The translations under genes and the position numbers were made by a program. The notes beneath the pieces were generated by a model, which ran no database searches, was not told the DNA's origin, and saw only the letters and a list, made by a program, of their open reading frames with translations. From Psilocybe cubensis (Eukaryota), in contig CM039003.1 in assembly GCA_017499595.2 (NCBI GenBank), forward strand, positions 3,100,001 through 3,164,000: 64,000 nucleotides of DNA, given 5' to 3'. This document shows, piece after piece, positions 3,570 through 56,891 of the stretch; the first letter of the stretch is position 1; every line of letters starts with the position of its first letter.

Positions 3570-4887
3570 ATGGACATCGCTAGCACAGTCTACACTATCA
3601 CATCCGGGATCATCGATTTCGTCGCAGAGCACGGTGCCAAGGATTCATTGCAGGAGCAAATTTCAGACATTGTCCTTCAAATTCGAAACGTCGTTGGGCC
3701 CCTCATCATACGAGATGTTGACAACATTCCATTACAGCAAACACTCCAGGGAATGCAGAACGTGCTTTCAAATGTCGACAGTCATCTACGATCGTGGAAG
3801 GAGAGTCGCAGCCGCAGAATGCTAGCTCTCGTCAATCCATGGGCAGTCACACAAGAAATCAAAGAAGATCGTGTACAGCTCATGCACCAGTATATCTTAT
3901 TGATGGGGGCAATGCAAGTCGTTAATCATATCTTCGTCAGAGGATACAACTATCTACCTCCCCCTCCGCAATCTGCCGCCCCACTCACCCCACAATCGCT
4001 ACGTATCCAACAACTTCATCTTCCCGCTGCAGAGGAAGAGGTTTTACAATTCTGGCATTCTCGTATTGGAGGCGATGTGAGTATTTTGTGATTTCCAGTT
4101 GGGTGTCACCGTTCTTATTTTTGACAGTTTGAAGTCGTCAAGAGCCAGGATTTGTGCAACCATCTGGCGTCATGGCTCAATATCAAGTTGGGTCCTCTTT
4201 CTCGTCGGCGCCTTCTTCTGCGACTGGATGAGCACAATACTGGACATGTAACGCTCAAAACCCTTCAAGATCTGGTTCAGAACACCAAGATGAAAGATAC
4301 TATCAAATTGTATACGTCAAGTGTGTATTATATACATCGTTCGGTACATCCTTTGACATTTTTCGACACAGATCCTAAATTCCCCTTATTGATATGGATA
4401 TCCGACGACCTTGCATTGAATGCGCCTAAGGTTGCGTTCGCTCTGGAAAAGGGGGTTTCAGTTGTCCAGTTAGCCACAACGGCTACAGCCAAAGCCTGGA
4501 TAAATGCAAACCGAAGTAAATTCACTGCTTGTCGTCATGTAATGCGTCGGTATTGACTTCTATGTCATAGATTTTTTGTTGAAGCACGATAATGCTGGGG
4601 AAATTCGATTTATCTCAGATCAGTTTCGCAAAGAACTGAACGCAAAGGGTGAAGCTGTCCCTAATCGCAATGCAGGAAACCAAATTATCAAATTCATACG
4701 GGACAAGGGCTTCCAGGCTCCTATTTTGATCTATACCAACAAAAAGAGCCTTCACCTGACGCGTTATGTGGAGTCATATCCCAATGCGGGTTCCGCTGCA
4801 GGCCACCCGGAGGTGTATCAGGAATATATATCTGCTTTGGGTTCACGTCGGGTCGATGATAGAGAGTGGATGAAGTTCGGTGCATAA
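3570..4887 (+). CDS. 4-helix-bundle (MLKL/Cbl-N-like) + EF-hand-like + receiver-like domain protein, paralog 1 (4 exons)
   Basis: ORFs 3570-4091, 4152-4556 and 4576-4887 join through GT..AG introns at about 4077-4127, 4321-4370 and 4516-4570. Motifs: FWHSRIG, LLRLDEHNTGHVT, LLIWISDD, IRFISDQ, AGNQIIKFIR, PILIYT. Confidence 0.8.
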
Positions 4888-6895: not shown

Positions 6896-7159
6896 TTGAG
6901 TTTAATAGGAAGATTACAAAAATCCAATGAGAAGCTCTGGAGAAAACCGCGAGGAAATGTGAATAGCGCCTTATACATTGCCACCGTCAGCCTGAGAGCA
7001 CAAACGGTGTTGATCAAACCTCTGCTCGGCCCCAAGCGGCATGAGCTCACACATGAGGTTTCACATTCCAGTAAATGTCTAAACGGTGGGGGCAAAAACA
7101 TTGCTCTTCCAACCGCTCTATCACATTCCGAGCGAATCACCAAAACATTGTTTTCAAAA
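6896..7159 (+). repeat. Split direct repeat A1 (264 bp)
   Basis: Identical by eye to 11977-12240 (ttgagtttaatagg...gttttcaaaa). Confidence 0.95.
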
Positions 7160-7217
7160 GGATTTAAAAGCCTTGCTTTTCATCGATAACTTACAGCTAT
7201 CTCATCTTCACTGTATT

Positions 7218-8810
7218 ATGCATAATGTCCAACTTCAACATTCACCCACTCTTAACTCGAATGGCGATCAGGAACCGTTTGACGTGTCCCAATTCCCACG
7301 AAACGAAGGGTCCTCCAACACTTTATCTCCAGACCGCCATTCCTATCGACATAGAGAAAACTACGAACCATCCCAATCCAACGAGTGTCAGCTCGGCGGA
7401 CCGTCACGTTGTGTCAATCAACCTGAATACGTCACCCAATTTGAATTTGCGCAACGTCAGGGGCGATTTCGCCCCGCACAATTCACTCAATCGCAAAGTC
7501 AGAGGAGAGAAGAGGAAAGCGACTGCCGAATTGGAGCGCGAGACGTCTTTCATGACAGAGAATCAAACCGACCCGAAGTACAACATCTTGAGCAAAAACT
7601 CAGTCGAATCGTCCATCAATTCCAATCGCGACACTTGTCAAAGACCAAAGCACTATCCCAAGGACTCCAACTATTGGAATCCAACTCCTCAGTCGACAAC
7701 AGTCTCAAAGACAGTATCGTGTCCACCTTCTTACAAACAGTTGAATACAACGGTAAAGGAAAAGCCGTCGAAACCAATACATCACTCTTCCAACTTTCCC
7801 CACAACCTTCTTTCGCCTCGAGGCTCAACTCGCAACATATTTCGCATGTCCGACAGGAATCACACTCTCCCTCCATTCAAACACACAACTCCCGACACAC
7901 ACGCTCACCTTATTTACCACCGTACCCTGAACATTCCGTTGTACAAGAACAAGACTTGGACACGATTCTCGAAAGCCTTCAATCGTCAAACAAACATTCG
8001 CGTTCAGAATCCCCAGATTCACACTCCAGTTCAATTAAACGAACGAAACTCTACGAACACGACATGCCGTGGTTCGAAAGCAACCTTGAATGCACCACTA
8101 AAGACGACCCTCACATCACCAAAAACCTGCAACTCCTTCGACTCTACTCTACAGACATTGCAGCCGCCAAACGCTTCATTGCACTCTCCCCTAAAGCGCC
8201 CGCGAATTTCCCGATGTCTGAGTGGGAAAAAGTCTTCAGAGGCCAAAGTCTCAGCCTCGACCACTGCTTGTCATCACGATGTCGCGTGTCAATTGACACA
8301 GAGGCAACAACTCGCATCGGTAATGCCGAAATCCGCACAGGAGTCGTTGAACCGAAGCGAAAGGTTCACTCAGCACCAGATTGGTCGGCGGCATGGCGCA
8401 TTGCATCTCAGGCCACCGCGTTCGCATTCCCTCACCGAGCTGCGGAACTCAGAGAATACGGAGAATCAATCGAGGATGAATTCCTTGAGCGTGCCCCGTC
8501 TGAACACCCTCGAGTCATACTCTACGACATCGCCGTTCGGAACCAGGTTGCTGGTGGACAACACTACTCGCTTACAGACCATGGAAGATTCCTCCGACTC
8601 TACTCATCCATATTGCTCCCAGGCGGACGCGAGTACTCCGAACATAACTCACGACGTTCAGGCAACAACAATCGCAACGGACGCCGTCCCGATGTCTGCA
8701 ACAGGTTCAACTCTGAACGCGGATGTCCCCTTCCACAAAACGAGTGCCGATATCGACATGTGTGCAAACGTTGCCGAAAATCCGGCCACTCTGTCGAAAG
8801 CTGCAAGTAA
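7218..8810 (+). CDS. Retrotransposon ORF1 (gag-like) with C-terminal CCCH/CCHC zinc fingers
   Basis: C-terminus CNRFNSERGCPLPQNECRYRHVCKRCRKSGHSVESC. First ATG after repeat A1 is at 7218. Confidence 0.85.
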   Translation: MHNVQLQHSPTLNSNGDQEPFDVSQFPRNEGSSNTLSPDRHSYRHRENYEPSQSNECQLGGPSRCVNQPEYVTQFEFAQRQGRFRPAQFTQSQSQRREEESDCRIGARDVFHDRESNRPEVQHLEQKLSRIVHQFQSRHLSKTKALSQGLQLLESNSSVDNSLKDSIVSTFLQTVEYNGKGKAVETNTSLFQLSPQPSFASRLNSQHISHVRQESHSPSIQTHNSRHTRSPYLPPYPEHSVVQEQDLDTILESLQSSNKHSRSESPDSHSSSIKRTKLYEHDMPWFESNLECTTKDDPHITKNLQLLRLYSTDIAAAKRFIALSPKAPANFPMSEWEKVFRGQSLSLDHCLSSRCRVSIDTEATTRIGNAEIRTGVVEPKRKVHSAPDWSAAWRIASQATAFAFPHRAAELREYGESIEDEFLERAPSEHPRVILYDIAVRNQVAGGQHYSLTDHGRFLRLYSSILLPGGREYSEHNSRRSGNNNRNGRRPDVCNRFNSERGCPLPQNECRYRHVCKRCRKSGHSVESCK

Positions 8811-10647
8811 TCCATTTTCCGCTGCTTTAGGGTCACGGCCATCTTACTTGAGGCATAACCTATGGCCCGCTTATCCTAATTTATCCCCAACCGCCGCCGA
8901 TTGGACTGAAACTGCTATGCCTCTATCTCGCCCCTCTAATCTAGAATATCAGAATGTTCCCGCTATGCAAACTATTAGTAAAAATCCCGATTTGTTCAAG
9001 ATCATTACTCCCATTAATGTCGATGTCTTTGAAAGCCTATTAGTTGATCATCCAAACCAACCGTTTGTCAAATCGGTTTGCGATGGTTTTCGCTATGGTT
9101 TTTGGCCATGGGCTGATACTTCTTCATTCCCGTTAACTCATGACGAGTCTCGTCCTACACCAAGTGATCATGGTAAAGCTGAATTTCTTCGATCTCAGCT
9201 TAACGAAGAACAACAAAAGGACCGGTTCTCAACCTCTTTTGGTCCCGATCTACTTGACGGCATGTATTCTATGCCTGCGCACGCGGTTCCTAAACCCAAC
9301 GGCGTAGATTTGCGCCTTGTGACTGATCATAGTGCTGGAAAATTCTCACTCAACTCTATGATTGATCACGATAAGGTGACGGGGTATCCTCTTGATAATA
9401 TGAGTCACTTGGGCGAAATGTTATTACATTTTCGTGCCTTACACGGTGACGATAAGCTCGTAATGTGGAAATCTGATATTGCTGAAGCATATCGTCTTCT
9501 ACCTATGCATCCGCTGTGGCAATTAAAGCAAGTTAACACTGTTGACGGCCTGCGTTACATTGACAGATGCAACGCCTTTGGAAATTCGGCTTCTGGGTCT
9601 ATTTTTATTGCTTTTAATGCACTTGTTGCCTGGATAGCAACACGCAAACGCGGTATCGACTACCTCGCCAATTATGTTGATGACTCTTCGGGTTTTGATC
9701 TCGAAGGCAACACATCTTATTACGAACCTTACCAAAAACATCTTCCTTATCATCAAGCGATTTTACTCCGTCTCTGGGACGAACTAGGCATCCCCCACAA
9801 AGAGAAAAAACAACTTTCTGCAAACATTCTGCCCGTCATAGGTGTCGAAGTTGATCCTAATCATATGACTTTCGCTATGCCTTCTCATTCCAAAGAAGCA
9901 TTAATAGAAGCAATGAAAACGTGGGCAATTAAGCCTCCTAGTCGCAAAGCAACCAACTTCAAACTTAAATATTGGCAACAAATGGCCGGGTGGATAAACT
10001 GGGCACTGAACGTCTATCCCCTCTTGCGTCCCTGTCTGAATAATTTCTACCCAAAGACAGCTGGCTTATACAACCCTTTTCGCAATATTCGCGTCAATGA
10101 CCAAATTCGCAATGATTTTCTATGGGCTATCAAACATTTAGACAATTCGGACGGGGTACACTTGCTGCAATCTCGGGAATGGGATGTATCTCAATCCGAC
10201 TTTGTGATCTATTGCGATGCTTGCCCTGACGGAATGGGATTTTGGTTCCCATCATCCGCTCAAGCCTTTTATTCTTCAACTCCTCTTCAAAGCAATACAT
10301 CCATTATCTTTTATTATGAAGCGTTATGTGTTTACTGTGCCTTGGCAAACGTTGCCAAGATTGCTGGTTACGGAAACAAAGTTACCATATTCACCGACAA
10401 TTTGAATACGGTGGCAATATTTTCATCTCTGGCGTGTACACCTCAATTCAACGAGCTTTTAAAAGCCTCCGTTGACCTTGTTCTTGACAAGAACCTTAAA
10501 CTACGAATCTTACACGTGCCAGGTGACGAAAATACTGTGGCAGACGCTCTGTCACGCTCCCAGTTCTCGACTGCACTGACGATCGAACCGAGACTTGAAA
10601 TTTCACCTTTCCAACCTCCTCCATGGTCGTTGGAAAGAACACTGTAA
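7225..10647 (+). CDS. Retrotransposon reverse transcriptase / RNase H ORF; the recognisable part starts near 8800 and the 5' part overlaps gag
   Basis: LRLVTDHS, WKSDIAEAYRLLP, AFG and YVDD are RT motifs. CDAC, YYEAL, IFTDN and HVPGDENTVADALSR are DIRS-type RNase H motifs. Confidence 0.9.
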   Translation: MSNFNIHPLLTRMAIRNRLTCPNSHETKGPPTLYLQTAIPIDIEKTTNHPNPTSVSSADRHVVSINLNTSPNLNLRNVRGDFAPHNSLNRKVRGEKRKATAELERETSFMTENQTDPKYNILSKNSVESSINSNRDTCQRPKHYPKDSNYWNPTPQSTTVSKTVSCPPSYKQLNTTVKEKPSKPIHHSSNFPHNLLSPRGSTRNIFRMSDRNHTLPPFKHTTPDTHAHLIYHRTLNIPLYKNKTWTRFSKAFNRQTNIRVQNPQIHTPVQLNERNSTNTTCRGSKATLNAPLKTTLTSPKTCNSFDSTLQTLQPPNASLHSPLKRPRISRCLSGKKSSEAKVSASTTACHHDVACQLTQRQQLASVMPKSAQESLNRSERFTQHQIGRRHGALHLRPPRSHSLTELRNSENTENQSRMNSLSVPRLNTLESYSTTSPFGTRLLVDNTTRLQTMEDSSDSTHPYCSQADASTPNITHDVQATTIATDAVPMSATGSTLNADVPFHKTSADIDMCANVAENPATLSKAASNPFSAALGSRPSYLRHNLWPAYPNLSPTAADWTETAMPLSRPSNLEYQNVPAMQTISKNPDLFKIITPINVDVFESLLVDHPNQPFVKSVCDGFRYGFWPWADTSSFPLTHDESRPTPSDHGKAEFLRSQLNEEQQKDRFSTSFGPDLLDGMYSMPAHAVPKPNGVDLRLVTDHSAGKFSLNSMIDHDKVTGYPLDNMSHLGEMLLHFRALHGDDKLVMWKSDIAEAYRLLPMHPLWQLKQVNTVDGLRYIDRCNAFGNSASGSIFIAFNALVAWIATRKRGIDYLANYVDDSSGFDLEGNTSYYEPYQKHLPYHQAILLRLWDELGIPHKEKKQLSANILPVIGVEVDPNHMTFAMPSHSKEALIEAMKTWAIKPPSRKATNFKLKYWQQMAGWINWALNVYPLLRPCLNNFYPKTAGLYNPFRNIRVNDQIRNDFLWAIKHLDNSDGVHLLQSREWDVSQSDFVIYCDACPDGMGFWFPSSAQAFYSSTPLQSNTSIIFYYEALCVYCALANVAKIAGYGNKVTIFTDNLNTVAIFSSLACTPQFNELLKASVDLVLDKNLKLRILHVPGDENTVADALSRSQFSTALTIEPRLEISPFQPPPWSLERTL

Positions 10648-11654
10648 TCACCCGTGTTCGTCCCCCTCGTCAGCCACATCGCCCTGTGTGGTCCGCCGAA
10701 AAATTACAGCACGAACGTGCTTTGGCTCTGGGGGAAGCCATTGACATCTCCACTGAAAACGCCTACGGTTCCGCCCTTAACTCCTACCTGGCTTTTGTTC
10801 ATAACCACAACATTCCCGTAGAGCCAACACCCGACACCCTTTCGTTATACGTGACTTACCAATCATCATTTAACAAAATACACACCGTCGAAACTTATTT
10901 GTCTGGCATTGTACACCAACTAGAACCTCATTTCCCCAATGTCCGACAGGCCCGTACCTCTCCGTTGTTAAAACGAACTTTGGTTGGCTGCAAAAAACGG
11001 CATGGTACCCCTCAAACTCGCAAAGAAGCATTAACTCTCGACGATCTGCAATTACTGAAGCAACATTACACGACCTCCAATGACCACGACGACTCACTTT
11101 TTCTTTCTATGGTCATGACGGGTTTTTTCGCCCTATTACGTCTTGGCGAGATGACTCTACCCGACGAAAAACGTCTTCGTGACTGGCGCAAAATCACCAT
11201 GCGCAGCTCCGTACGCTTATCCACTTCCCAGTTTGAATTTTGGTTGCCATACCACAAGGCCGATCGGTTTTTTCAAGGAAACCACGTCATTGTCAAAGCT
11301 ACTCAATTCCAACATAACCCTGTGTCGCACTTCACCAACTACTTACGTTCGCGAGATCAACTTTTCGGTAACTCCAGCGGCCCTTTATGGCTCACGTCGA
11401 CAGGTGCCATTCCCACACGGCATTTCTTTATGACTAGGCTTCGACGTTTCTTTTCCAACTCCATCGCTGGCCAAAGTATGCGAGCAGGAGGTGCCACATC
11501 CCTAGCAGAACACGGTGTGCCTCCAACAATCATACAACAGATGGGCCGATGGTCTTCCCAGGCGTTTCTAATCTATATTCGAAGACATCCCGCAATCATA
11601 CAGGGTTTGCTCTACGCCAAATCCCGCGCACCAAATGTTACTACTCATACTTAA
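10623..11654 (+). CDS. Tyrosine recombinase (integrase) of the retrotransposon
   Basis: FFALLRLGE, HKAD, GQSMRAGGAT and MGRWSSQAFLIYIR give the catalytic set R-K-Q-R-W-Y. Confidence 0.92.
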   Translation: MVVGKNTVITRVRPPRQPHRPVWSAEKLQHERALALGEAIDISTENAYGSALNSYLAFVHNHNIPVEPTPDTLSLYVTYQSSFNKIHTVETYLSGIVHQLEPHFPNVRQARTSPLLKRTLVGCKKRHGTPQTRKEALTLDDLQLLKQHYTTSNDHDDSLFLSMVMTGFFALLRLGEMTLPDEKRLRDWRKITMRSSVRLSTSQFEFWLPYHKADRFFQGNHVIVKATQFQHNPVSHFTNYLRSRDQLFGNSSGPLWLTSTGAIPTRHFFMTRLRRFFSNSIAGQSMRAGGATSLAEHGVPPTIIQQMGRWSSQAFLIYIRRHPAIIQGLLYAKSRAPNVTTHT

Positions 11655-11840
11655 CCACTTTCCCGCTCCTCTATTGAAGTTTCTTTTTTGAAACTTCGCA
11701 TCATTCTAATCCAAAATCATAAAAAAAAAAAAAAAAATTCAATGGTTAGCCTTGACCTCGACAAAGTGGCCACGCATTCGTGCAATGTCACCCCATATGT
11801 AGCGTTTTCTCATTTCCTTGCTCACGAGCAGCCCCGCCTA

Positions 11841-11976
11841 TGCGCGATGCTGCTCCCCCACGTGTACTTAATCACTATAATATCTAATTTGTATTTTCGA
11901 GCACTCTGTACGCCCGAGCGCGAACAGAGTGCCTCCGTCGCTATTCCAAACCCGTGTGTTTCTCGCGAATCATTGG
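11841..11976 (+). repeat. Split direct repeat B1 (136 bp)
   Basis: Identical by eye to 12869-13004 (tgcgcgatgctg...gaatcattgg). Directly abuts A2. Confidence 0.95.
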
Positions 11977-12240
11977 TTGAGTTTAATAGGAAGATTACAA
12001 AAATCCAATGAGAAGCTCTGGAGAAAACCGCGAGGAAATGTGAATAGCGCCTTATACATTGCCACCGTCAGCCTGAGAGCACAAACGGTGTTGATCAAAC
12101 CTCTGCTCGGCCCCAAGCGGCATGAGCTCACACATGAGGTTTCACATTCCAGTAAATGTCTAAACGGTGGGGGCAAAAACATTGCTCTTCCAACCGCTCT
12201 ATCACATTCCGAGCGAATCACCAAAACATTGTTTTCAAAA
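11977..12240 (+). repeat. Split direct repeat A2 (264 bp)
   Basis: Copy of 6896-7159. Confidence 0.95.
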
Positions 12241-12257
12241 CCCACCCTTCTCCTCCC

Positions 12258-12899
12258 ATGGCACGTTCTTATAACACCCCTTCTACCACGTCCAACCACG
12301 AAAATTCTGATGCAACTTTAATGGAATTTTTCACCAACAATGCCGCAGCCATCAATGCCATTTTACACCAACACTCGTCCACAGAAACTTTCAACTCTTC
12401 CACTGACGACCTTGCTTGGAATAATGCTGTCGCTGCTTTACACAACATTACACACTCCCGTCCTGCTACCCCCGTCCTACTGCGACGGATGTACGCAACC
12501 TCCAATGCTTTTTCACCCCAACCCAGCGAGTCCTCCACTGTCGTTTCACCCGCTGTTTCACAACCCGCATCACCTCCTCCCCTCACTGTCATTTCACCCG
12601 CTGTTTCACAACCCGCATCACCTCCTCCCCTCAGCAACACCCTCTCACTTGCCCACAATGACAACAACTACTCTGATTATACACAATACGACGACTACTC
12701 ATCTTACAATAACCAACAATCTCAACCGAACGATTTCCGTCCCCGTTCTACTCTGATCCCACGCGTGTTGCCTCCCATCAATTGGCCGTCCGACTTGTAT
12801 CCACCCATCCAACCTACTGCAGAATTGCAAGCCCAAACTCCGTTCCCAAACATGGAATCGTCACCCGTTGCGCGATGCTGCTCCCCCACGTGTACTTAA
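12258..12899 (+). CDS. Putative extra ORF (213 aa, Ser/Pro/Asn-rich) between A2 and B2 of the retrotransposon
   Basis: ATG lies 18 nt after A2 and the frame stays open across the whole spacer, stopping inside B2. It contains an in-frame 48-bp tandem duplication. No recognisable domain. Confidence 0.5.
   Translation: MARSYNTPSTTSNHENSDATLMEFFTNNAAAINAILHQHSSTETFNSSTDDLAWNNAVAALHNITHSRPATPVLLRRMYATSNAFSPQPSESSTVVSPAVSQPASPPPLTVISPAVSQPASPPPLSNTLSLAHNDNNYSDYTQYDDYSSYNNQQSQPNDFRPRSTLIPRVLPPINWPSDLYPPIQPTAELQAQTPFPNMESSPVARCCSPTCT
12536..12633 (+). repeat. 48-bp tandem duplication (2 copies, 1 mismatch)
   Basis: cactgtc(g/a)tttcacccgctgtttcacaacccgcatcacctcctcccct occurs twice, encoding TV(V/I)SPAVSQPASPPPL twice. 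Confidence 0.9.
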
Positions 12900-13004
12900 T
12901 CACTATAATATCTAATTTGTATTTTCGAGCACTCTGTACGCCCGAGCGCGAACAGAGTGCCTCCGTCGCTATTCCAAACCCGTGTGTTTCTCGCGAATCA
13001 TTGG
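12869..13004 (+). repeat. Split direct repeat B2 (136 bp), right end of the element
   Basis: Copy of 11841-11976. Confidence 0.95.
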
Positions 13005-15417: not shown

Positions 15418-18400
15418 TCAATTCCCCACCGCCTGCTGAACAACAACCAATCCCGAACCAACCCCAGCTACCACAAACGCAGCCGCCACATCCCCAATCG
15501 TCTTCCTCACCTCGCTACCCACTTTCTCGCGCTGCTCTTCCATAAGCTGCTTCAGCTCCTTCGTGTGGTTCTCCACCGCCAGGCGCCGCGACCGACCGGT
15601 TATAACAATCAGCTTCGCGTTGTGGTTGGCTGAAGAGAGTGCAATTTCTCGCGCCTCGTGTAATGCGGTATGTAAGGGTATAGGCGTGGATGCCGTGCGG
15701 AACTCGATCTGTGGGCGGGAGGAGGTTGTGGATGCGGAAGATGAGTGTGTGGATGTGCTGTCAGATACCGGCGCATTGTTAGCTGGTGTCCGTAAAGGCG
15801 CGTATCTCGCCCAAATGATGTTATCAGCCGTCTCCGATTGAAGCCTTGTCTCTGTATTATGCTGTCCATACACTGTATCAGGACCTGCAATTCTCTAAAA
15901 TTAAACCAGGCGAAAAGAAAAGTCAACAAGCCATCCATCGTAGAAGAAGAGTATATTGTTAAACTTACCGAACCAATAGTCAAAGCGTTAATTTCTTCCA
16001 TATTCCTACCCTCGTCCCCCGCCGGCCCCGGCTCTGCTGATAATATGTTTCCATCATGTCCAGCGCCTTCCTCGCTCTTGGTGATCCGCACCACCGTCCC
16101 CCTAATTCTTGGGTTCGAACAAATTTGAACCACAAACTCCAAAGCAAGCCGATCATCCGGTCCCCCGAAAAACGGCAAAAAGACATGCTGCTTCCCCCCT
16201 TCTGCTCCAACAACCGACGGAACGCCTACACCCGTGTACAAATCCAAAGTGCTCTGGTCAACAAACAGGGCCACATCCGTCTTCGCCTGTGCAAACACCC
16301 CGCGCACAAACTGCGAATGGATCACAGACATCGACGTGCTGACATCCTGCCCCCCAGATATATTTGACCCACGGAAGAAGTAGTCAAAGGGGTTTTGACC
16401 TAGCGGGCTGCGGAAATTGGATGTCGGTGCTGTGGCCGTATTAGCTGTGGGCGGTAGAGCGATTGGTTGCTGGGGTTCTCCGGAGGTCGGCGGATGGAGA
16501 GGGGTTGACGGCGGCTGGTGGTGGTGATCCGACCCATCAAATGCATTGTGTACAGGAGGCAGCCATGGGATCAAAATCATATCCGAATCATAGTTCCTCG
16601 CATGCTCCGCCACACTATACGCCAGCTCCTCAAATTTCACAACAGACAGCGTCGGGGACACGCTTATCCCATTAAGCTGTCCAAACATGCGGAATATAGA
16701 TAGCAGTGGATCAGTGTGCAAGAGAGACTCAGAGACGGAGGACTTCATAACTGCTGATACACGGTCAGAGAGCTCGATAAGACGCAATGCTTCGGCAGCA
16801 ATGAAATGGGGGAGAGTTTGGTTGCTCTGAGAAGGTGCTCGGGCGCCAAGGGCCAAAGACGCGCGCCTGTCATGTGTAGACGGTGGGGCAGGTTGGATGA
16901 GCTGCGTCAACGCCATCATCGCGGGTAGATGTTCCAATTTATCCAGCACTACCGTAAAGCGTGTTTTGAATGCTCCATCCAAGGAGGGTTGGGCTTTTTT
17001 GTGCACGACAGCCTCGTCATCAGCAACGTTGTCGAAGGTGGGGCCTGTAGTGTCAATTCGACGTCGAAATTGTGGCGGATAGAGCCACGTTACAAGCGGG
17101 GTCGTCATGAATGTCAAAACGAGTGCTTCGAGCACAAACATGGAGAAAACACGCTGTAGGCAGAGACACTCAGCTTTACAACTAAAAATATAATGAAGGG
17201 AAATAGACTCACGGGTGATAGAATTCCAGCTGACAAACCAACATTGAGGACAATCAACTCGACTAACCTATAGGAGGTATATATCGGTTAGGCGCTCGTG
17301 TTCAGCAAAAAATTACAGACCCTTTGCAACTCATGAGTGACCCAATGGTAGTAGACTCGCGCCAATTGAATCCAGCAGCATAATGGGCTGCAAGTGTGCA
17401 CCCTCCAAACTTTCCAGCAAATGCGGAAACAATAATCGCAATGGTGTATCCCCAAGTAATACCTACATTAATCAGGTCAGCAAACACACCGACGAAAAGA
17501 TAAAAATGTCCTAGTACCGTTATCCAAAAGCCCAAGATCGGTGGAAAGTCCTGAAAGTGTAAAATACTAGTGCAAATATTAGAGTTAAAAATTGAGCCAT
17601 TGAATTCAAACTCACCAGCGGCAAAAAGATAATTGACACCATATCCTCCAACTTCTCCGTGATAATGATCGCCAGGCCACCTTCGCGAGGAACAATGAGG
17701 CCCGCGATAAAGGCGCCAAAGATAGCGTGCACGCCGATGACGTCAGTGAAGAACGCCGAGCCGAAGAGGATGAGCATCGTCACTGTCATAAAGAACACCG
17801 TTGGACCGCTTTCGACTGTGTACGTGATGGTTAGATACGATCAGATCAGATGGAGGTGATGCAGACGCACTGGAGCCTGTTTTGCGCGCTATCCAACGAA
17901 GCACGAACTTGACGGGGAACATGAGGAATATAGTCCACCCGACGCAGACGAGGAGGATGTACAGCGCGGTAAGGCCTGTGCTCGCATTCACCAGCGCGAC
18001 ACTGAGTGCTAGCAAAATCCACCCCACTGATAAAAGGTGTATCAATAACGACAGGGCCATCACCCGAGTGAAACACAACACACCAATATCATTTCCTACC
18101 CCTGCAGACAGCACCACAATGCCTACCGTCGTATCTAACAGCTTCAGCTCCGTCAAGATACGGCACAGCACTGGAAACGCTGTGATAGAGTACGCAACGC
18201 CCGTGAATAGCATGAAATGCGTGAACTCGATGCCTGGATCAATGAACTTTTTGTACACCGCAGACGAGAGCCCCGCTCCAATTCCAAAAGGGAGTGCCAT
18301 ACCCGCGAGCGCGACGGTCGCTGACAAGCGCGCGTTGCGCTTTATCACCCCAGAGTCGATCTCGAGCCCCACAAGGAAGAGGAAAAGACAGAGCCCAATG

Positions 18401-18892
18401 TTGGCGACGAGGCTGAGGTAAGGGCGCGACTGTTGCGGAAAGATGTGCTCGGTGAAGCCGGGAATACGGCCCATGGCGGTGGGACCTGTTCGTCACCGTC
18501 AGTGGTGGCATCGACAAAATGATCTGCTGGCATTGCGCACCAAGAATGATACCCCCTAAAACCTCTGCTATGACCTTGGGTTGCCTCATCTTTCTAAGCC
18601 CCAACGACAGCAAATTCGCTGTACATATGATGATACCTATTTACAAACGTCGACGCGCATATATGAAGCACAGACCGTATTTTTCATTGGAAGCAAAGGC
18701 ACTCACCGACTTGGATAATCCACAACCTCAACGGGTCGTTTTCGTTGAACTTGGTCGGATCCGACCCGCTCAGCAAACCGCCCTACGCCAAACATTCAGA
18801 ACATCGTCGACATTATCAGGACATGGCCTCACCTGTTCCGGGGCCGCCCGTTTCTGAAAGAGACTGATGACATTCCTGGAGAACTCTGGCAT
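15418..18892 (-). CDS. KHA1: K+/H+ antiporter (Kha1-like, CPA2 family), multi-exon
   Basis: QPKVIAEVLGGIILGP, LFLFLVGLEID, ITAFPVLCRILTELKLL, GVHAIFGAFIAGL, LPFFGGPDDRLALEFV. Confidence 0.9.
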
Positions 18893-33668: not shown

Positions 33669-35843
33669 ATGGCGACAATGGACTATATAGAGATTCCAGA
33701 GGGGGCGACGCGTCTGCGTGGCATGTCGGACCAGCAACATCAACGAGACGATGAGAAACAACACCACGATGTGAGGCCAGCAGCCAAAATAACCACGTCT
33801 ATCCCAAACCCATCCCCTCCGCACTCACCGACACCGCGTACGCGGCGGCAATCACTTTTGTCGACGACAGCAAACTCGCTGAATTCGCCAACGTCTGCGA
33901 TGTCGTTCATACCCCAGATGCTGCTCTCTGCGGCGCTTCCACCCGTTAGTCCCGGATCACCCACATCGACAACGCCGACACTACCGAATCTCAAAAGAAC
34001 GGGCCTGCCAGAGAGCTATACGTTGATGTCAACAAAGGACCCGCTGTCGTTGCCGATCATGTCAACCAACTTCAAGCGGTTTGTGACGATAATAGGGCCC
34101 GTCTTCTGGCTGCAAGACCGAATAGAGGAAATTATATTATGGAAAAGGGGTACTTTGAGGACAGCTGTCTGGATGGCTGCATATGCATTTATTTGTGAGT
34201 CACACAATTTTCTTTTTTGCGAGGAAACTTAATGAAAAGTCTAGGTTTTTATCCTCGACTTATATTGCTGCTTCCACACATAGTGTTGATTGGAGTTATT
34301 CTGGCGACATATCCTTATCCTGCATCGGCTTCTGCTGATCCTTTATACTCCTCCAGTGACGCCAACTCGGCTTCGCCACCCTCAACATCCCCTCCCATGG
34401 AAGGCATCGTGCCTTGGCAAGCCAACATCCAAGGCATCCAAAATCTCATGGGTGCAGTGTATCTATCGCTTCTGTCACGATCTTTTACTGGGTGCTCATG
34501 TTTAACCTAGTGCTGACCTGCACGCACTCGTCGAGCCGCACGTGTACCACCTCATCCTTACCCCTCAACATCTTGCAAAGTCGACCCCAAAATCAACTGC
34601 TCAGTCTACGCAAGACAGCAGTACCGGTACCACCACTTCCCAATTCCCCCGTTCACCATACACAACACACATCCTTACCCTCCTCGTCGTCACATTACCC
34701 CCTTTACTCCTGCTTATCCATCTACCTATATTCCCGATTAGGGAGGTTTGTCTCTTCGGTGGCCTGGCACCGTTTGTCTTGACACACCCATATGTACGGT
34801 TGCTGATACCTCTCCTCTGGGGCATGGCTATGGACACTATGCCTGTCTTGCTTGCACGGTGGCGGCGGGTGAGGAATCGCATAGTGAGTATGAATATGAA
34901 GGTTTTAGGGGTCGACATAGCAGGTTTGTTTGGGCTGCATCATCATAGCCAGACTGCCAAAGGTAGGCGAAATGGGGGTGGTGACGAAACCAAAGACGCT
35001 GTTCCAGAGAAGATGCTCCCCTTGTCGATGATTGTGCAAAGAATCATTGATGATGATCGTCTCACTGACGAGTGCTGGAATTCGGAGATGAGGGAGGTGC
35101 AGTTGTGGGAGAATGAGAGATACGGAGGTGCGTACGGCCTGCTTTGCACCCATTGTTTGGTTATCAATATTTTTTTGGACGTTTAGGCCCCTTACCATCA
35201 GATTCATCTATTCTTCTTGGTGCATCATCCTCTTCTTCGTCCAGTTCCATGTTCCTTCCCCCGCAAAAAGGATGGAGCAAGTTGAATTTGCGGCCAGGAG
35301 AACGAGGTGCATGGACGAGGGGTCAAGATGGCTGGAGTGGAAGCGGCGGGGGAGGAAGTGCGAATGCAGATGGAGGTACAGTTGAGGTCGGAGTCGGTGG
35401 GGAAGTCAGGTTCGTTATTTTTTTTGTAGCCCTGATCCCATTTCTGGTGCAACATTCCTCTCCATCTTTCTCTATTTATGATTTGTGGAAGCCAATAAAA
35501 GCAGAAACACAAGCTGACGCGCCTTTTTCATCGCTCCTTTTTCCTTTTTCCCTATTTGTGTTCGGTTCTGACATTCCATCCTCCGACTTTCGATTGCAGT
35601 AGCAATCTCACATTTTCGCTCGCTCCTGGCTGGCGGTTCGTCGAGACAGAGGACTGGAGGAAGGATCTCAAGTGCGAATGGTCGGGTTGTGGAGGGGACC
35701 CGGACGGCTGGGTGTATACGAACGATGCCTGGCTGGGCTCGCGGCCGGCACCATACACGTCTGGTGGGGGCAGCGTTACCAGGAGAAGGAGGTGGGTGAG
35801 GAGAGTATGGTTTGATTGGAAAAAAGCGAAAGAAGATTCGTAA
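33669..35843 (+). CDS. Pex24/Pex28/Pex29-type peroxin with C-terminal dysferlin (DysF) motifs, multi-exon
   Basis: LSLPIMSTNFKRFV..IGPVFWLQDRIEEIILWK, NIQGIQNLMG, LWENER, GWRFVETEDW, DPDGWVYT, VTRRRRWVR. Confidence 0.85.
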
Positions 35844-36257
35844 TGATTAGTTAGTCTATGTATTTAGATTTTTGTCTGACCTTGTGGTATTCAAGAGAAA
35901 GTATCGTTAGCGGTTTTAGATGTGCTTACGGGCTTGTCATTTAATGGTAAGATAAATCACCTTTAAGTAAATCACCTTTAAAATTTATATGATCCCAATG
36001 CCCTCATCGTTGCATCCGCCTTCTAAAAGGCCATTCGATCGAATACCTTTCTCAGTCATCTGTCGTTAAACTATTGCAGAAACCAGATACATCGCCAACT
36101 CCACTGATTTTTATTGAATTGGTGACCGGAGGGCATGACATACATACGGGCATTTTCCACAACGGTCAATTTTGAACATATGTTTGCAGTACATACTTCC
36201 CGACTTACCAGAACGCAATCAAGAGAACCGGGGGCGTGCCCTATTTCTTGAAGCAAG

Positions 36258-41019: not shown

Positions 41020-42360
41020 ATGGATGTGGCTAGCATCGTATATAGCCTCACCATTGGCATTGTCTCTTTTATCTCTGAACATGATGACCACAAGTCCCTG
41101 ACCAAGGACATAAACAAATCCGTCTTGCTGGTCCAAAAGAATATCAAACCTCTATTCGCCCACCCGAAGAGCCTCGAAGAGAACGAATCTCTCAACGAGA
41201 GTCTCCATGCACTGCAAGATGTTCTCTTGAATATTTATTACCACCTTCGTCTATGGAAGGAGAGTAAATCCCATCGCGCACTTGCCCACCTTTACCCATG
41301 GAAACCCACCCAGCAACTCCAGGATGACAGACAAATGTTGGTGGAGAAATATCTCTTGCTTATGGGTGCGACCCAGTTCGTCGACCGCCTGCAGGGGTTC
41401 CATGTCATTTCTCGTGCCCCTACCATGGACTCCATCGTCATTCCTCCTCCTTCGTTACCACAATCAGTACCATTCAAAATCGAGCCTAAAGACGATCCAG
41501 AGAATTTAGAAGTCACCAAATTCTGGTATCACTGTGTTGGTGATAAGGTGCGAAATTCAATTGCCCTAGTGTTCGCAACTGATGTTGCACATGTAGACAA
41601 CTCTGGCCGAATCGGAAACCTTTTGCGTGGACATTTCAGCATATCTTGCCCTGGATCTTTCTCCAGTGGCCTGTAAACGGCTCTTGTTGCGTCTCGACGA
41701 GCGTGGATCAGGAAACATATCCTTCTCTGCGCTTCAAGAACTCGTAAATCAGGGCCCATTCGCAGATGTAATTAAGACCTACACCCAAGGTTAGTCACCC
41801 CTCCAATGTATATAAGCAATTACAATCAATACGACGTGTTAGATCCTGCCTTACCCTTGTTGATCTGGATTGACGACGATGTGGTTGGGAATCAGCCAAA
41901 GGTGCTTGAAGCCTCCAAATCTGGTGTTACAGTGATCCAATTAGCGTCAACGGCTGCCGCAAAATCATGGATTACGATAAATGAAGGTATGCCTTATACT
42001 CATACTTGGTTATGCTTCATGACAATTAATAATGGAACCAAAGATTTTATCAAGGCTCATGACAATCCCGCTGAGATTCGCTTCATCTCCGACCAAGTCC
42101 GGTTCGATACCGACTCAAGTGGTACTCTTTTTGAGAACCATGAAGCTGGCACCCAAATCTATCACTTCATTCGTGGCCATGGCATCAAAGCACCTTTTCT
42201 CGTTTACACTGACCCCAAAAGTATCCTCGTAACTCATTACATTGATCATGACGATATGGCGGGGTCATTGAACTCCCATTACAAGGTATACAAAGAATAT
42301 GTCAATGCTTTGGGAGCCGGAAGGAAAGATGATAGAGGATGGGCGAAATTTAACGCTTAA
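41020..42360 (+). CDS. 4HB + EF-hand-like + receiver-like protein, paralog 4
   Basis: MDVASIVYSLTIGIVSFISEH, FWYHCVGDK, LLRLDERGSGNISF, LLIWIDDD, IRFISDQ, AGTQIYHFIR, PFLVYT. Same three introns as the other paralogs. Confidence 0.8.
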
Positions 42361-52659: not shown

Positions 52660-53505
52660 TCACTTGATTTCTTCGTATTTCTTTAGCCCCTCCACAAACC
52701 TCTTCCAACGACCATCGTTCCAGGAAGCTATATCTTCCCACTCCTCGCTCTCCTCTCCCCATACCGCTCTCGCCCAAGACATATACCCGCCCACTACGAA
52801 ATCCGCCCAGCATGGCGTAGCACCCATAATAAACGGGCCATTATTTTCTTCCGCTTCTTTGAACCATTTATCTGTTTTGTCCAAGCCGAGCTTCACCTTC
52901 GCCCATTCTGTGACCCGCTTCTCTCCCTTCGGTATCAGGTCCTCAAGCCTCTCTACCCTAAATAATTCCTTCCGTGTCCTGCGGAAATATTCCTGGCTTC
53001 GCGGATTAAGAACAGCACATTCCTCTGGGATCAGGAAGTTGAAGATGGGCTCCATATTCAGTGCGAATGCGCGTGCAAAGGGCGCCTGAACACCGGCAGT
53101 GTTGTGCGGGAAGATGTGTGGTTTGTTTGGATAGGTCCTGTCGAGGTACCTCGCGATATCGAACGAGTTGGAGAGGTATGTGTTTGTGGCAGGGTCGTGA
53201 ATCGCTGGAAGGGTATATGCTGGTACTTTCTTCATGCCGCCCCTGCCATCAGGAATCTTCTTCGCCGACGTTGGAGGAATACCATGTGCTACGCAGTGCG
53301 CTTCGATGTCGGGGTACTCGATCCACTCTGTTCGATATGGGAGCCCTTTGAAATTGAGGCAGTACCTGCATAATGTACTCCTCCTGTGTACTCGTTTCCG
53401 CTGTAGATTTGTGCAGACTCACCTTGTTTTCCAGGTATTTGGGGACCATGCTTTTTGCGGGAGGCTCGAGGGGATGTCGAAGAATGCAATCCTCATATTC
53501 TTCAT
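52660..53505 (-). CDS. Glutathione transferase, fungal GSTFuA/etherase-like class, copy 1
   Basis: FDIPSSLPQKAWSPNTWKTR / YCLNFKGLPYRTEWIEYPDIE, YTLPAIHDP, SNSFDIARYLDRTYP, WNDGRW. Confidence 0.88.
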
Positions 53506-53781
53506 CGTCTACGTCAATGGTGGGTGTTGGATTAGATGAGTCAGGCTCGCGGGCTATTCGTGCCGGTATCCCGGTTGGTCACGCGTCACGGTAAGTCGGT
53601 TTGCCGAAAACCCAATGTGAACCGCTGCAGTGTTGAACTGGACGTTTCGTAGTGCTTTTTTACAAAAATCTCGTTACTATTGGATAACAGGATTTATCCT
53701 GGTACAAGATTAGGTTTTAACAGAATAGGTAACGGAGTGACGTAGTTCCCTGATCGACTGGACATTCATTTCCCTCGAAAC

Positions 53782-54550
53782 TTAGACAACGGTCTCAAAA
53801 TTTTGGAAATATTCACTATGAACTTTCCAACGACCACCATTCCACCATTCCACCTCTCTCCATTGATCACTCTCCTCTCCGCATATTTTCCTGACGTTGA
53901 CCAGGAAGCTGGCTAGAACTATATCGGCCCATGAAGGAACATCGCCCAACAGAAATATGCCTTTCTTTTCGTTTTTGGAATACCAAGCATCTACTTGATC
54001 CAACCCGTCCTTGAAGGCTTTCCAATTTTCTGCAAAAGAAGTGGGAAGGGAGGAGCCGTGTTTGTTGATCATATATGCTGAGCTTACAGGGTTCAGCTTG
54101 GTGAGCACGGTTGGAAGTATGGCAGGGAAAACGCTCTTAACGTTATGGTATATGGCGTCGTTGAGTGCGGATTGGATTGCCAATGTGCCATTTGGAAATA
54201 GCAGTGGCTTATCAGGGTAAGTTTTATCCAGATACTGTGCTATGAGGATTGAATCGGAAATGTAGACACCAGTGCTTGGGTCGTGAATTGCAGGAACCGT
54301 GTAACGGGGACTTCCATCTGGTTTCTTACTGGCTGGGGGAACTCCTAACTTCTCAAACAGTGGCTCAACGTCAGGTAGTTCGACCCACTCCGTCTTATAG
54401 GGAATGCCTTTGAAGTTGAGGCTGAGCCTGTAGGAATAATCAATCTTAACTTGGAAGCCATCGATGTAATACTAACCGAGCCTTCCAGACGTTGTACGTC
54501 CAGGCCTTGTCCGGTAGAGTGGAAGGTATGTCATATAGAATGATGGACAT
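53782..54550 (-). CDS. GSTFuA-like glutathione transferase, copy 2
   Basis: MSIILYDIPSTLPDKAWTYNVWKAR / LSLNFKGIPYKTEWVELPDVE, SDSILIAQYLDKTYP, WNGGRW. Confidence 0.88.
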
Positions 54551-56115
54551 CGTGTTCGTTTGTTGGTCAGGGCTTTTCAAAGGTGAGACGAGACGCTCTT
54601 ATAGCTTTGCCGTACAATAACGGCATTTTCATTGAAAGACTAACTAAAATCATTCAGTCAACTTTGCATCTTCACCATTCTCTGATAACATAACACAGGT
54701 GTGCGTGTGTATATTTCTCATCATCAATTTGAAATACGCACCGTCATTTGCTCACATTGCTATTAGGACGCTAGTGGCCATATATTCAGGGCAGCCATGA
54801 CAAGTGAGTCGCATTTCTCTGAATGTAGGCGAAAGAGGCAACTTGTGATCTGTGCCTGCTAGGCGGTCGTGTCTTTAATGCAATTGGAGAAATAACAGGC
54901 ATTCTTCTGACATATCCATGATGGGCTGTTATCACCTACAATTAGGTCGATGATTTCAAAAACGCTGACCGCTCAGTGAGGTGTTGACGTTCAACTGTCA
55001 GCCTTATCTTTTACCATTGCAGATGGCTTCCTTTGTCCCTGCACAGTGAGACTCGGATAATCCGGTGCAACAACAATACTATAGGAGAAAGCACATGCAC
55101 GAACCTATGTATCTGTTTTTTTCCGCTCAGGAAGCGCGAGTCTCGGTCTCGGTTTTCTATGGATGTAAAGTTCAGGGCATAAAGATCCTACAAGCTGGCG
55201 TCCGTCACCCATGAGGATTTTCTTTGGTATGTTTCACCAGTGTCTCCATGTCATAGTAGCATCTTGACTAAAGAACACCGTAAGCAAATAGAATAGTTAC
55301 AGACACCTGACGATTTCCCCGCTGATAATGATTACCGTCGGTGTTCGGTTTTGCCGTAACGCTCTCTGTGGAACTTGCGCAATGAAAAGTCATCCTCTGT
55401 ATCTCTACAACAGGCAAGCTCCATCCTGTATCAAAATAATTCTTGCTCATATTACACGCGGATAGTAACGACTACTCTTTTTCAGTCTTTAATGAATCAA
55501 ACGTGGCTAAAATCTCTGAAACCTGAGGCAGTTCAGAAAGGCGTCAAGTTCCGTGACCGACCGGCAATCGCTTAACTATACCACAACCAGATAGGCACGG
55601 ACTTCATCAATATGCAGAAGACGCCATGAATCTCGCTGGAGTCAATTGAGCAAACTTTCACATGCAAGACGGGACATGTGAGTTATTTTCGGGTTTTGAT
55701 TTAGCGACAACTTTAGCGACAACAAAGTGAAGAGTATTTCTTATATGGAGGCATGCTTTGTCCTCAAAAACGGATGATACGTAATAGGGATTTTATTAGG
55801 TAGGCATTGGACGAATGAAGCTTTTTGGCTGGGGTGATGTGAAGGTATGTTCCTTTGAATTAAAATGAGAGCATCCCTGGGTACTACTTCATACCGAAGC
55901 TGATAGGCGCCCATGCTCATATGACATCATTGTATGGTGGAACGCGTGTATTTCCGAGTCGTTAAAATGAAGATCAACTAAACTATACTGCATTTAACGA
56001 GATGGTGAATGAATTTCTCTATGCGGCCAACGATGAATGATTTCTGTTTTGACCGACAAGAATACCAAATAATAAACCGTCCTGTAGGTTCAGATCATTC
56101 AATGCTTCTACTTTT

Positions 56116-56891
56116 TCAAATGACGGTTTCGTAGGCGCTGAAGTAGCCACTGAGTTCCTTCCATCGGCCATTGTTCCATGATTCCACCTCTCGCCATTCG
56201 CGACTCGCTTCCCCGAAAACTATTTTTACGTATACAAGTACGCTGGCCACCACAATATCAGCCCAAGACGGAGAATCTCCAAATAAAAATGTGCCTTTAT
56301 CGCCATTTCTGGCGTACCATGTGTCGATTTGATCTAGTCCTTGCTTGAATGAATGCCAGTAGTCTTCAAAAGTTGGCTTTGGGGGTAAAGATCCATGCTT
56401 GTTGACCATATAAGTCGAACTGACATCATGTAGATTACTGAGAATAGTTGGGATCATCGCAGGTACGACTGCCTTAATGTGATAAAAGAAGCCATCGTTG
56501 AAGGCAGACTGGATTCCAAACGTTCCACTGGGGAATAGCAATGGTTTGTCTGGGTAGGTCTTATCGAGGTAGTCTGCAATGAGGATTGAGTCGGAAACGT
56601 ATACGCCGGTAGATGGGTCGTAAATCGTTGGAACGGTGTAATAAGGACTTCCATCTGGTTGTGTACTCGATGGCGGAACACCTAGTTTCTTGAAAGTGGG
56701 TTCGATGTCGGGAAATTCGATCCAGTGGGTGGTGTAAGGAATACCCTTATAATTCAGACTGAATCTATTTTGACAATGAGCACGATTACAGGATATCGAT
56801 TATTGCTAACAACTGACCTAGCTTTCCAAACATTATAGGTCCAAGCCTTCCGAGCTAGAGAAGAAGGTATATCATAGAGAATGATGGACAT
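56116..56891 (-). CDS. GSTFuA-like glutathione transferase, copy 3
   Basis: MSIILYDIPSSLARKAWTYNVWKAR / FSLNYKGIPYTTHWIEFPDIE, SDSILIADYLDKTYP, WNNGRW. Confidence 0.88.

Follow-up and report, generated by a model that had tools for sequence, protein, structure and literature searches.

An MLKL-type bundle joined to an EF-hand pair and a receiver fold in four Psilocybe cubensis paralogs, and how it might be controlled

Four-helix bundles of the MLKL type kill cells, by necroptosis in animals and in the immune responses of plants and ascomycete fungi. A 64,000-nt stretch of Psilocybe cubensis contig CM039003.1, hereafter the window, holds four paralogous genes, p1 to p4, which raise the question of whether such bundles are encoded here and, if so, what would keep them in check and set them off. 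In answer we propose, judging the chances to be about even, that the products are MLKL-type executioners held and triggered in cis by a module of an EF-hand pair and a receiver fold, acting through a pocket of three Asp residues and one Arg (D/D/D/R). The combination of the three domains may be a novel means of keeping killer domains of this kind under control.

Gating of the bundles known so far falls to a pseudokinase (MLKL), to an amyloid motif with an NLR (HET-S, HELLP) or to a NOD module (NLRs), according to those portions of a review of HeLo and MLKL bundles on which we draw, where CheY goes unmentioned (PMC12881547); in the window family, by contrast, the bundle shares its chain with an EF-hand pair and a receiver fold. 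Some 500 stand-alone basidiomycete MLKL-like proteins, up to 400 residues long and few of them with amyloid motifs, are described in a paper whose passages on these proteins expect other proteins to regulate them and state the control of these hundreds of copies as open (PMC9815663). For one large group the present family offers a concrete answer, namely putative control in cis by the EF-hand/receiver-fold module with its pocket of D244/D245, D298 and R301. The terms 'EF-hand', 'receiver' and 'flavodoxin' are all absent from the main text of PMC9815663, and six family accessions were not found in 10 supplementary files of that paper. An earlier note on this DNA had called the architecture unfamiliar, and full-text searches of the literature agree with it, as they turned up no paper in which an EF-hand or a receiver fold is linked to an MLKL or HeLo bundle.

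The gene p1 and its parts lie in the window as follows (pLDDT, predicted local distance difference test):

3570-4887, plus strand: p1 gene (JR316_0007454), exons 3570-4076, 4128-4320, 4372-4515 and 4571-4887, 386 residues
3570-3944, plus strand: predicted four-helix bundle, MLKL/HeLo-like, residues 1-125 (AlphaFold2 model, structure matches, hhalign)
3945-4025, plus strand: Pro-rich, poorly conserved linker, residues 126-152 (pLDDT, paralog identity)
4026-4320, plus strand: predicted EF-hand pair with a degenerate loop D203...G208, residues 153-233, intron 4077-4127 inside (AlphaFold2 model, structure matches)
4377-4884, plus strand: predicted CheY-like receiver-fold domain, residues 236-386, intron 4516-4570 inside (AlphaFold2 model, structure matches)
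4618-4620, plus strand: codon of Asp298, at the end of beta3

Three predicted folds on one chain

Spliced p1 equals, letter for letter, the database protein P0001 ('hypothetical protein JR316_0007454 [Psilocybe cubensis]'), and AlphaFold2, given P0001 and a 36-sequence alignment, returned a model of three domains with a mean pLDDT of 90.2 and a predicted template modelling score (pTM) of 0.78. The first domain consists of helices 3-20, 26-47, 53-78 and 90-121 with a short helix, 80-88, before the last, and it shares the four-helix bundle, the short helix between h3 and h4 and the N-terminal position with MLKL, HET-S/HELLP, RPW8/CC-R and BaMLKL. The NLR-borne BaMLKL is reported, in the passages of PMC9815663 on it, to have an extra N-terminal helix, which the p1 model lacks. 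When the model was compared with 48,161 solved chains, an MLKL executioner domain ranked first (6ux8_A, Z 12.9, root-mean-square deviation (rmsd) 2.7, 120 aligned), residues 1-122 of the model falling onto 1-123 of the chain, which is the whole domain; mouse MLKL ranked second (4btf_A, Z 12.2), and the CC-R domain of Arabidopsis NRG1.1 matched at Z 11.0. Re-scoring of the top 1000 Foldseek chains added the MLKL executioner domains 6zz1_B (Z 13.6) and 6zvo_C (Z 13.3), with rmsd values of 2.5-2.9 for the MLKL matches, and in a second model, comprising bundle and EF-hand pair, the bundle again matched MLKL first, at Z 12.9. The earlier note had read the N-terminus as an MLKL-type bundle, and these scores of Z 12.9-13.6 to executioner-domain structures sustain it.

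Since helical bundles can reach a Z of about 13 without kinship, the bundle was assigned on structure and sequence links together. Bundle membership was judged with the Pfam models PF22215 and PF17111 at gathering score, and the Pfam scan covered 130 distinct family proteins (11 + 30 + 90, one of them counted twice). MLKL_N lay above its cut-off in one relative, P0081 of Coprinopsis marcescibilis (38.4 bits, E 1e-9, residues 8-136), and below it in four (P0077, P0036, P0073 and P0091); PigL_N, a HeLo-like model, lay below cut-off in three relatives, P0091 counting here too. By hhalign, the bundle of the clade to which the window genes belong was aligned with that of the MLKL_N-positive clade over 124 columns (probability 96.2%, E 2e-9), and the route through an intermediate clade gave 99.8% and 99.3%. 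The 36-sequence profile, run against PDB sequences, reached MLKL N-terminal domains at E 0.05-0.1 over query positions 7-134, the top row of that search being a de novo bundle (E 0.006). In the ESM Atlas, an independent line of agreement, feature matches to residues 1-140 were MLKL_N-bearing clusters (0.93 and 0.92), and structure matches with template modelling (TM) scores of 0.70-0.75 were N-termini of fungal NLR-like proteins (PigL_N) and of plant CC-NLRs (Rx_N). In 82 of 104 instances the bundle begins no more than seven residues into the protein, and its helix 1 carries no charge over positions 3-18; an N-terminal placement and an uncharged first helix are known for HeLo-type and CC-type bundles. 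As modelled, then, the N-terminal domain folds like the membrane-attack bundles of the MLKL, HeLo-like and RPW8/CC-R kinds.

The linker that follows is real, as the earlier note had it: it is Pro-rich, spans about residues 126-152 of p1 and falls below pLDDT 50 at 142-150. Behind it the model places two helix-loop-helix units (helix 153-166, strand 172-174, helix 175-185, and helix 192-202, strand 209-211, helix 212-219), the loops of which bear short paired strands. This middle domain aligned with the EF-hand of MINDY3 over 75 of 75 residues (8q06_B, Z 8.7), with further EF-hand matches to 5cuu_A (Z 8.4) and 3mse_B (Z 7.6), and the 36-sequence profile reached EFCAB6 (E 0.011) and centrin (E 0.06) among PDB sequences, so that the paired fold of what had been called an EF-hand-like module is borne out by the model and by the match to 8q06_B. 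In a census of 104 distinct loop instances, position 1 is Asp in every one and position 6 is Gly in 100, position 3 is mostly aromatic (Tyr in 26, Phe in 25), and position 12 is Thr, Ser or Asn in 78, with neither Glu nor Asp among the seven commonest residues listed there. The canonical 12-residue calcium loop (Asp, Asn or Ser at positions 1, 3 and 5, Gly at 6, Glu or Asp at 12) was not found over these 104 instances, and because the canonical calcium ligands are missing, we read the EF-hand as probably structural rather than as a calcium site.

Bundle and EF-hand pair together resemble a known arrangement. Foldseek with the full p1 model put entries for the tyrosine-kinase-binding (TKB) region of Cbl and Cbl-b first (8vw5_A, E 9.6e-4, 355 columns). 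A natural bundle-plus-EF fragment of 251 residues, P0038, gave the second model (pLDDT 87.1, pTM 0.52), so that the likeness to Cbl could be tested without the receiver fold; its listed Foldseek ranks 1-33 were all Cbl TKB (E 4.4e-4 to 6e-2, 217-281 columns), with the next non-Cbl match at E 0.23, and VIA-align laid residues 1-226 of the model onto 53-264 of the Cbl TKB chain 6xar_A (Z 11.0, 189 aligned). Because the superposition across bundle and EF-hand pair has an rmsd of 20.8, the match to 6xar_A is one of two bodies, whose orientation to each other differs or is not fixed. The Pfam model Cbl_N2 came just below cut-off in three relatives (19.7-21.2 bits against 22), and Cbl_N and Cbl_N3 matched none of the 130 proteins. 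The Cbl TKB (four-helix bundle, EF-hand, SH2) is the best multi-domain PDB match and has the same order of bundle and then EF-hand, but its third domain is SH2 where the window family has a CheY fold, and Cbl has a RING that this family lacks. A hint of Cbl at the N-terminus in the earlier note was thus well placed, as bundle and EF-hand pair can both be aligned to the TKB.

The C-terminal domain is modelled as a (beta-alpha)5 fold over residues 239-372, with a beta-hairpin inserted after beta3 (strands 301-304 and 310-313), the 10-residue insert carrying Arg301 and Glu303. About 40 receiver domains matched it at Z 10.5-12.1 among the 48,161 chains, including 3kto_A (Z 12.1, 119 aligned), 3jte_A (Z 12.0) and the receiver of yeast SLN1 (1oxb_B, Z 10.6), and an ESM Atlas comparison of the C-terminus with a 126-residue response regulator gave a TM score of 0.81; the CheY-like fold that the earlier note had read from the sequence is thereby confirmed at the level of structure matches. 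No receiver domain was among the 40 matches of the 36-sequence profile to PDB sequences, and Pfam Response_reg (PF00072) was above cut-off in 0 of the 130 family proteins, its single match below cut-off being P0160 (21 bits against 30.2). A rhodanese identity, which UniRef attaches automatically to P0062 and P0064, two members with Cys at the end of beta4, was dropped, as there was no such Pfam match and the listed structure matches are nearly all receivers.

The positions of a receiver's active site were counted over 106 distinct instances of this domain. After beta1, D244 is present in 89 and D245 in 89, and each of the four window paralogs has at least two acidic residues there. Residue 298, which closes beta3, is Asp in 87, Asn in 10, Gln in four, Ser in three and Cys in two, and the end of beta4 is Cys in 52, Thr in 40, Ala in 12 and Ser in one (in the window, Thr in p1, p2 and p4 and Ser in p3). 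A conserved Lys after beta5 was not found: of the nine columns that follow this strand, no single one has Lys in more than 12 of the 106. In 82 instances D298 is accompanied by two or more acidic residues behind beta1, and in 30 Thr or Ser at beta4 completes the set. Near-invariant residues sit on helix 3, helix 4 and strand 5 (R325 in 105, G317 in 104, T345 in 101, A316 and V348 in 100 each, S356 in 99, Y347 in 92). The family therefore shares with receivers (PF00072) and pseudo-receivers the fold, the acidic pair after beta1, in most instances the Asp ending beta3, and a small residue ending beta4, and differs from receivers in having no conserved Lys, in the frequent replacement of Thr by Cys or Ala, in the hairpin with Arg301 and Glu303, and in a near-invariant set of its own (R325, T345, Y347 and S356). 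That the domain is a phospho-Asp switch, which the earlier note had taken as established for REC domains, was not upheld: the conserved Lys is missing, the acceptor position is occupied by Asn in p2 and by Ser in p3, Cys or Ala frequently takes the place of Thr, and none of the 130 proteins scores above the Response_reg cut-off.

Arg301 accompanies Asp298 in 85 of 87 instances and is found in six of the 19 without Asp298 (Fisher p 1.6e-10, a value inflated by kinship), a co-variation that suggests a functional pocket. Within the window the pocket residues are SDD/D298/R301 in p1 and DDD/D/R in p4, as against DSD/N/L in p2 and DED/S/C in p3, and the losses in p2 and p3 are common to their orthologs. 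We infer from these alignments an acid-base pocket that probably works in the p1 and p4 lineages and was given up by those of p2 and p3. In the Cys-type members P0062 (Jaapia) and P0064 (Calocera) the motif after beta4 is YCG-x-S-x3-T, and a thiol at the pocket might be relevant there; the window copies have Thr or Ser.

The family and the proposed control of the bundle

Pfam at E values up to 10 gave no family on the window pieces except a stray HPAT match at 0.16, and 11 close orthologs, searched at E up to 5, gave no relevant family. Among 1.84 billion representative proteins, a profile of these 11 orthologs retrieved 375 relatives at E of 1e-3 or less, 197 at 1e-10 or less and 86 at 1e-30 or less. 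The named members come from many Agaricales, from Jaapiales, Gloeophyllales, Polyporales and Russulales, from one dacrymycete (Calocera) and from one transcript of Physarum polycephalum; the family is widespread in Agaricomycotina. With our own domain hidden Markov models for bundle (N), EF-hand pair (EF) and receiver fold (C), 168 proteins, many of them short fragments, were sorted into N-EF-C (61), EF-C (22), C alone (29), N alone (18), C-C (13), N-EF (8) and N-EF-C-C (4). The EF-hand pair and the receiver fold travel together. The stand-alone C-domain was not used as an architecture, since many of the 29 have inserts at the position of intron 3 and were taken for fragments of intron-blind gene calling, and fusions with DUF4238 (P0040) and with a P450 (P0182) are probably merged gene models. 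Tandem receiver folds in the order N-EF-C-C were noted in P0048, P0060, P0061, P0065 and P0056; in P0065 and P0048, the single copy without Asp298 (Gln and Cys, respectively) is also short of acidic residues after beta1, with fewer than two.

Another effector is found in front of the module in a few members. Pfam TIR_2 lay above cut-off in the environmental protein P0123 and below it in P0118 of Physarum, both of which carry EF-C; they run from TIR through about 100 helical residues to EF-C, and P0129 has the same order without the TIR part. P0118 and P0123 share the EF-hand and receiver-fold module with the window genes, downstream of a domain of TIR immune proteins that the window genes do not have. 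The helical region of the TIR forms did not align with the bundle (hhalign probability below 2%), a metagenome scan for more TIR forms returned only the contig of P0123 itself, and a search with the C-domain for longer proteins gave 16 matches and no new effector domain.

On the proposal made at the outset, each gene would yield a soluble three-domain protein in which the bundle is the putative membrane-permeabilising executioner and the EF-hand and receiver-fold module restrains it in cis, as the pseudokinase does in MLKL. An input at the conserved pocket, formed by the acidic residues after beta1 (D244/D245), by Asp298, which closes beta3, and by Arg301 in the hairpin behind it, would make the module release or cluster the bundle. 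That input would probably be a phosphoryl group, a phosphate-bearing ligand or a metal, and a classical His-Asp phosphorelay is improbable because the receiver Lys is missing. The paralogs p1 and p4 keep the pocket, and p2 and p3, without it, may be pocket-dead partners or be regulated differently. The module's place behind TIR in Physarum would fit a portable switch for induced-proximity effectors, and the pTM of 0.78 for the whole protein, against 0.52 for bundle and EF-hand pair alone, fits a packed three-domain unit. If the receiver fold is in fact phosphorylated, a eukaryotic cell-death effector would be coupled to chemistry of the two-component type.

Several points weigh against an executioner under such control. 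By the aligner's own note, chance alone can bring helical bundles to a Z of about 13, and MLKL_N matches none of the window's own proteins. The likeness to the Cbl TKB allows the bundle to be read as a non-lytic scaffold. The 19 non-Asp instances behind the Asp298-Arg301 statistic amount, by eye, to roughly at least eight lineages. In the TIR forms, TIR precedes an additional helical region and is not a simple replacement of the bundle. Finally, strong conservation of orthologs together with transcripts of p2 to p4 is atypical of fast-evolving immune genes.

A scaffold of the Cbl type, in which a rigid platform with a purely structural bundle would recognise a phosphorylated or acidic partner at the pocket and kill nothing, is in our view unlikely, although it accounts for much: for the Cbl TKB entries that fill listed ranks 1-33 with the bundle-plus-EF model and reach E 9.6e-4 (8vw5_A) with the full one, for the Z of 11.0 with 189 residues aligned over both domains, for Cbl_N2 just under its cut-off (19.7-21.2 against 22 bits) in three relatives, for a pTM of 0.78 that fits one packed unit, and for four paralogs that are old and conserved. 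What tells against it is that the bundle taken alone scores higher with MLKL than with Cbl (Z 12.9-13.6 and rmsd 2.5-2.9, against the two-body rmsd of 20.8), that MLKL_N and PigL_N match relatives where Cbl_N matches none of 130, that a free, uncharged N-terminal helix is retained at the protein start, and that the third domain is not SH2.

More improbable still is a true phosphorelay output, in which a Ypd1-type HPt protein would phosphorylate Asp298 and thereby open or close the MLKL-like bundle. The geometry of CheY is there in p1 and p4 (acidic residues after beta1, Asp ending beta3, Thr ending beta4), the SLN1 receiver aligns at Z 10.6, D298 with at least two acidic residues after beta1 is kept in 82 of 106 instances, and Arg301 could conceivably replace the missing Lys. 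Yet Lys after beta5 stays at or below 12 of 106 over nine columns, the full set with Thr or Ser is found in just 30 of 106 with Cys in the place of Thr in 52, the acceptor position holds Asn in p2 and Ser in p3, Response_reg is above cut-off in none of 130 (its single match, at 21 bits, falls short of 30.2), and the 23 largest open reading frames (ORFs) of the window yielded neither a histidine kinase nor an HPt gene. That the four genes are functionless decaying copies or annotation artefacts is hardly credible: no Pfam family falls on the window pieces and p2 and p3 are absent among the database proteins returned, but all four frames are intact, p2, p3 and p4 are spliced in RNA contigs, there are 375 relatives with an ortholog-like partner for each paralog, and the AlphaFold2 model is a confident one.

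The MLKL-type executioner controlled in cis can be carried into a wider reading, which we find possible but doubtful. The EF-hand pair and receiver fold would be an old portable switch, common to Amoebozoa and Agaricomycotina, that gates proximity-activated death effectors (an MLKL-type bundle in mushrooms, TIR in slime moulds) via the D/D/D/R pocket for a phosphoryl or phosphate-bearing signal; the bundle and EF-hand pair would share ancestry with the Cbl TKB; and the long-linked pocket-intact (p1, p4) and pocket-dead (p2, p3) paralogs would work as pairs. Were the switch portable in this way, a further control logic for four-helix-bundle executioners would stand beside control by pseudokinase, NLR and amyloid, and the TIR-linked module of Physarum together with the Cbl-TKB-like arrangement would tie together signalling architectures of fungi, amoebozoans and animals.

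Gene models, transcripts and age of the paralogs

The gene models were made by enumeration of introns and then corrected with RNA contigs from two sequencing runs of one study, X1 and X2, whose conditions are not on record. The other three paralogs and their introns lie as follows:

29086-30490, minus strand: p2 gene, exons 30490-29957, 29889-29697, 29624-29481 and 29414-29086, 399 residues
29415-29480, 29625-29696 and 29890-29956, minus strand: p2 introns, with a 5' leader intron at 30560-30627 (RNA contigs of X1 and X2)
31101-32536, minus strand: p3 gene, exons 32536-31973, 31899-31707, 31650-31507 and 31444-31101, 414 residues
31445-31506, 31651-31706 and 31900-31972, minus strand: p3 introns (RNA contig of X2)
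41020-42360, plus strand: p4 gene (JR316_0007468), exons 41020-41547, 41597-41789, 41843-41986 and 42044-42360, 393 residues
41548-41596, 41790-41842 and 41987-42043, plus strand: p4 introns (RNA contig of X2)

All four paralogs have four coding exons and intact frames, exon 2 being 193 nt and exon 3 being 144 nt in each, and the introns of p1 (51, 51 and 55 nt) are all GT..AG. In tblastn, spliced p1 found p2 (E 3e-41 and 3e-22), p3 (E 4e-27 and 4e-18) and p4 (E 1e-71) at 31-37% identity, and the remaining matches in the window all had E of at least 3.8. Four paralogs with a common four-exon structure had been claimed at these places and on these strands, and both claims stand, the introns of p2 to p4 being confirmed by the RNA contigs. 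By parts, the paralogs are 27-41% identical in the bundle, 30-45% in the EF-hand part, 40-51% in the C-domain and 0-22% in the linker. The motifs described in the earlier note are present, with some rewording needed: its beta3 motif RFISD applies to p1 and p4 (FISDQ), p2 having FISNQ and p3 FIISQ; its beta1 motif IWIDD is in fact IWISDD, IWIDSD, IWIDED and IWIDDD in p1 to p4, respectively; and in its module LLLRLD-x4-G-x-I, p1 has G-H-V and p3 has S-T-I at the G-x-I positions.

All nine predicted introns of p2, p3 and p4 are skipped exactly in contigs of X1 and X2, and a DNA run of another study, X3, reads through the introns of these genes unspliced; that X1 and X2 are RNA is a database guess, and both behave as RNA over p2 to p4. 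The genes p2, p3 and p4 are transcribed and spliced. For p1, X1 and X2 contain 0.78 of the sampled words, our own estimate for a spliced mRNA being about 0.81, and its exon junctions are gap-free in the alignment of orthologs. Spliced p4 equals the database protein P0027 (JR316_0007468) letter for letter, and p2 and p3 were absent among the database proteins returned by the searches. Met16 is a possible alternative start of p3, and a p3 model of four introns, with an extra intron of 45 nt, was dropped, as the RNA joints listed show three. In exon 1 of p3 (32042-32473), the RNA contig of X2 has 16 listed differences from the window in 432 bp, six of which, in five codons, alter the protein and 10 of which are synonymous, and X3 agrees with the window; the variant probably represents a different strain's allele.

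A maximum-likelihood tree of 25 full-length members, chosen from about 190 fetched, places p1 to p4 all inside one 17-row clade (100/100; supports are ultrafast bootstrap/Shimodaira-Hasegawa approximate likelihood ratio test, SH-aLRT). Here p1 pairs with Psilocybe cyanescens (100/98), and the two nest among Galerina and Gymnopilus (100/99); the partner of p2 is from Agrocybe pediades (100/99), that of p3 from Flammula alnicola (100/100), and that of p4 is a metagenome protein (100/99). Because each paralog thus groups at strong support with a protein from outside P. cubensis, the tree argues that the paralogs are old lineages whose duplications predate the split of several genera. The earlier note had held that local expansion and divergence fit an immune-type locus, and the results point the other way: the lineages are old, 14 of the 20 listed differences between the window and X2 in p3 are synonymous and six are not (107 more on the compared stretch are unlisted), and a Pfam search of the window's 23 largest ORFs brought up neither an NLR nor a kinase nor a HET gene. 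The locus does not look like a fast-diversifying immune locus.

Paralogs are apparently linked elsewhere as well, as P0017 and P0169 of Agrocybe pediades have the locus tags D9613_006305 and D9613_006313, and a contig of 131,114 bp is reported for both P0014 and P0028 of Cyclocybe aegerita.

Neighbouring genes and elements

Between p1 and the other paralogs lies what looks like a DIRS-type retroelement (7083-12900, plus strand). It has an ORF of 1159 residues (7168-10647) with a reverse-transcriptase-like YVDD motif and a weak RNase H-like match (E 0.1), an ORF at 10599-11654 with a weak tyrosine-recombinase match (Phage_integrase, E 0.043), and a 48-bp tandem repeat at 12536-12633.

RNA contigs of 2 kb from X1 and X2, at a word depth of about 70, lie over a gene between p3 and p4 (33558-35914); its four introns are GT..AG on the plus strand (34195-34244, 34459-34510, about 35126-35186 and about 35408-35602), and its two largest exons gave no Pfam match. 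Just beyond it, 110 bp of the window (36142-36251, ends AC..GA) are missing from a DNA contig of X3, a length polymorphism between assemblies, and small indels lie at 35885-35991.

Five tandem glutathione S-transferase genes with GST_C_7 and GST_N domains occupy 52660-59870 on the minus strand, and ordinary neighbours are an Hsp70-like ORF (60607-61926, minus strand), an ORF of the 2EXR family (24241-24975, plus strand) and a Na/H-exchanger exon (17743-18492, minus strand).

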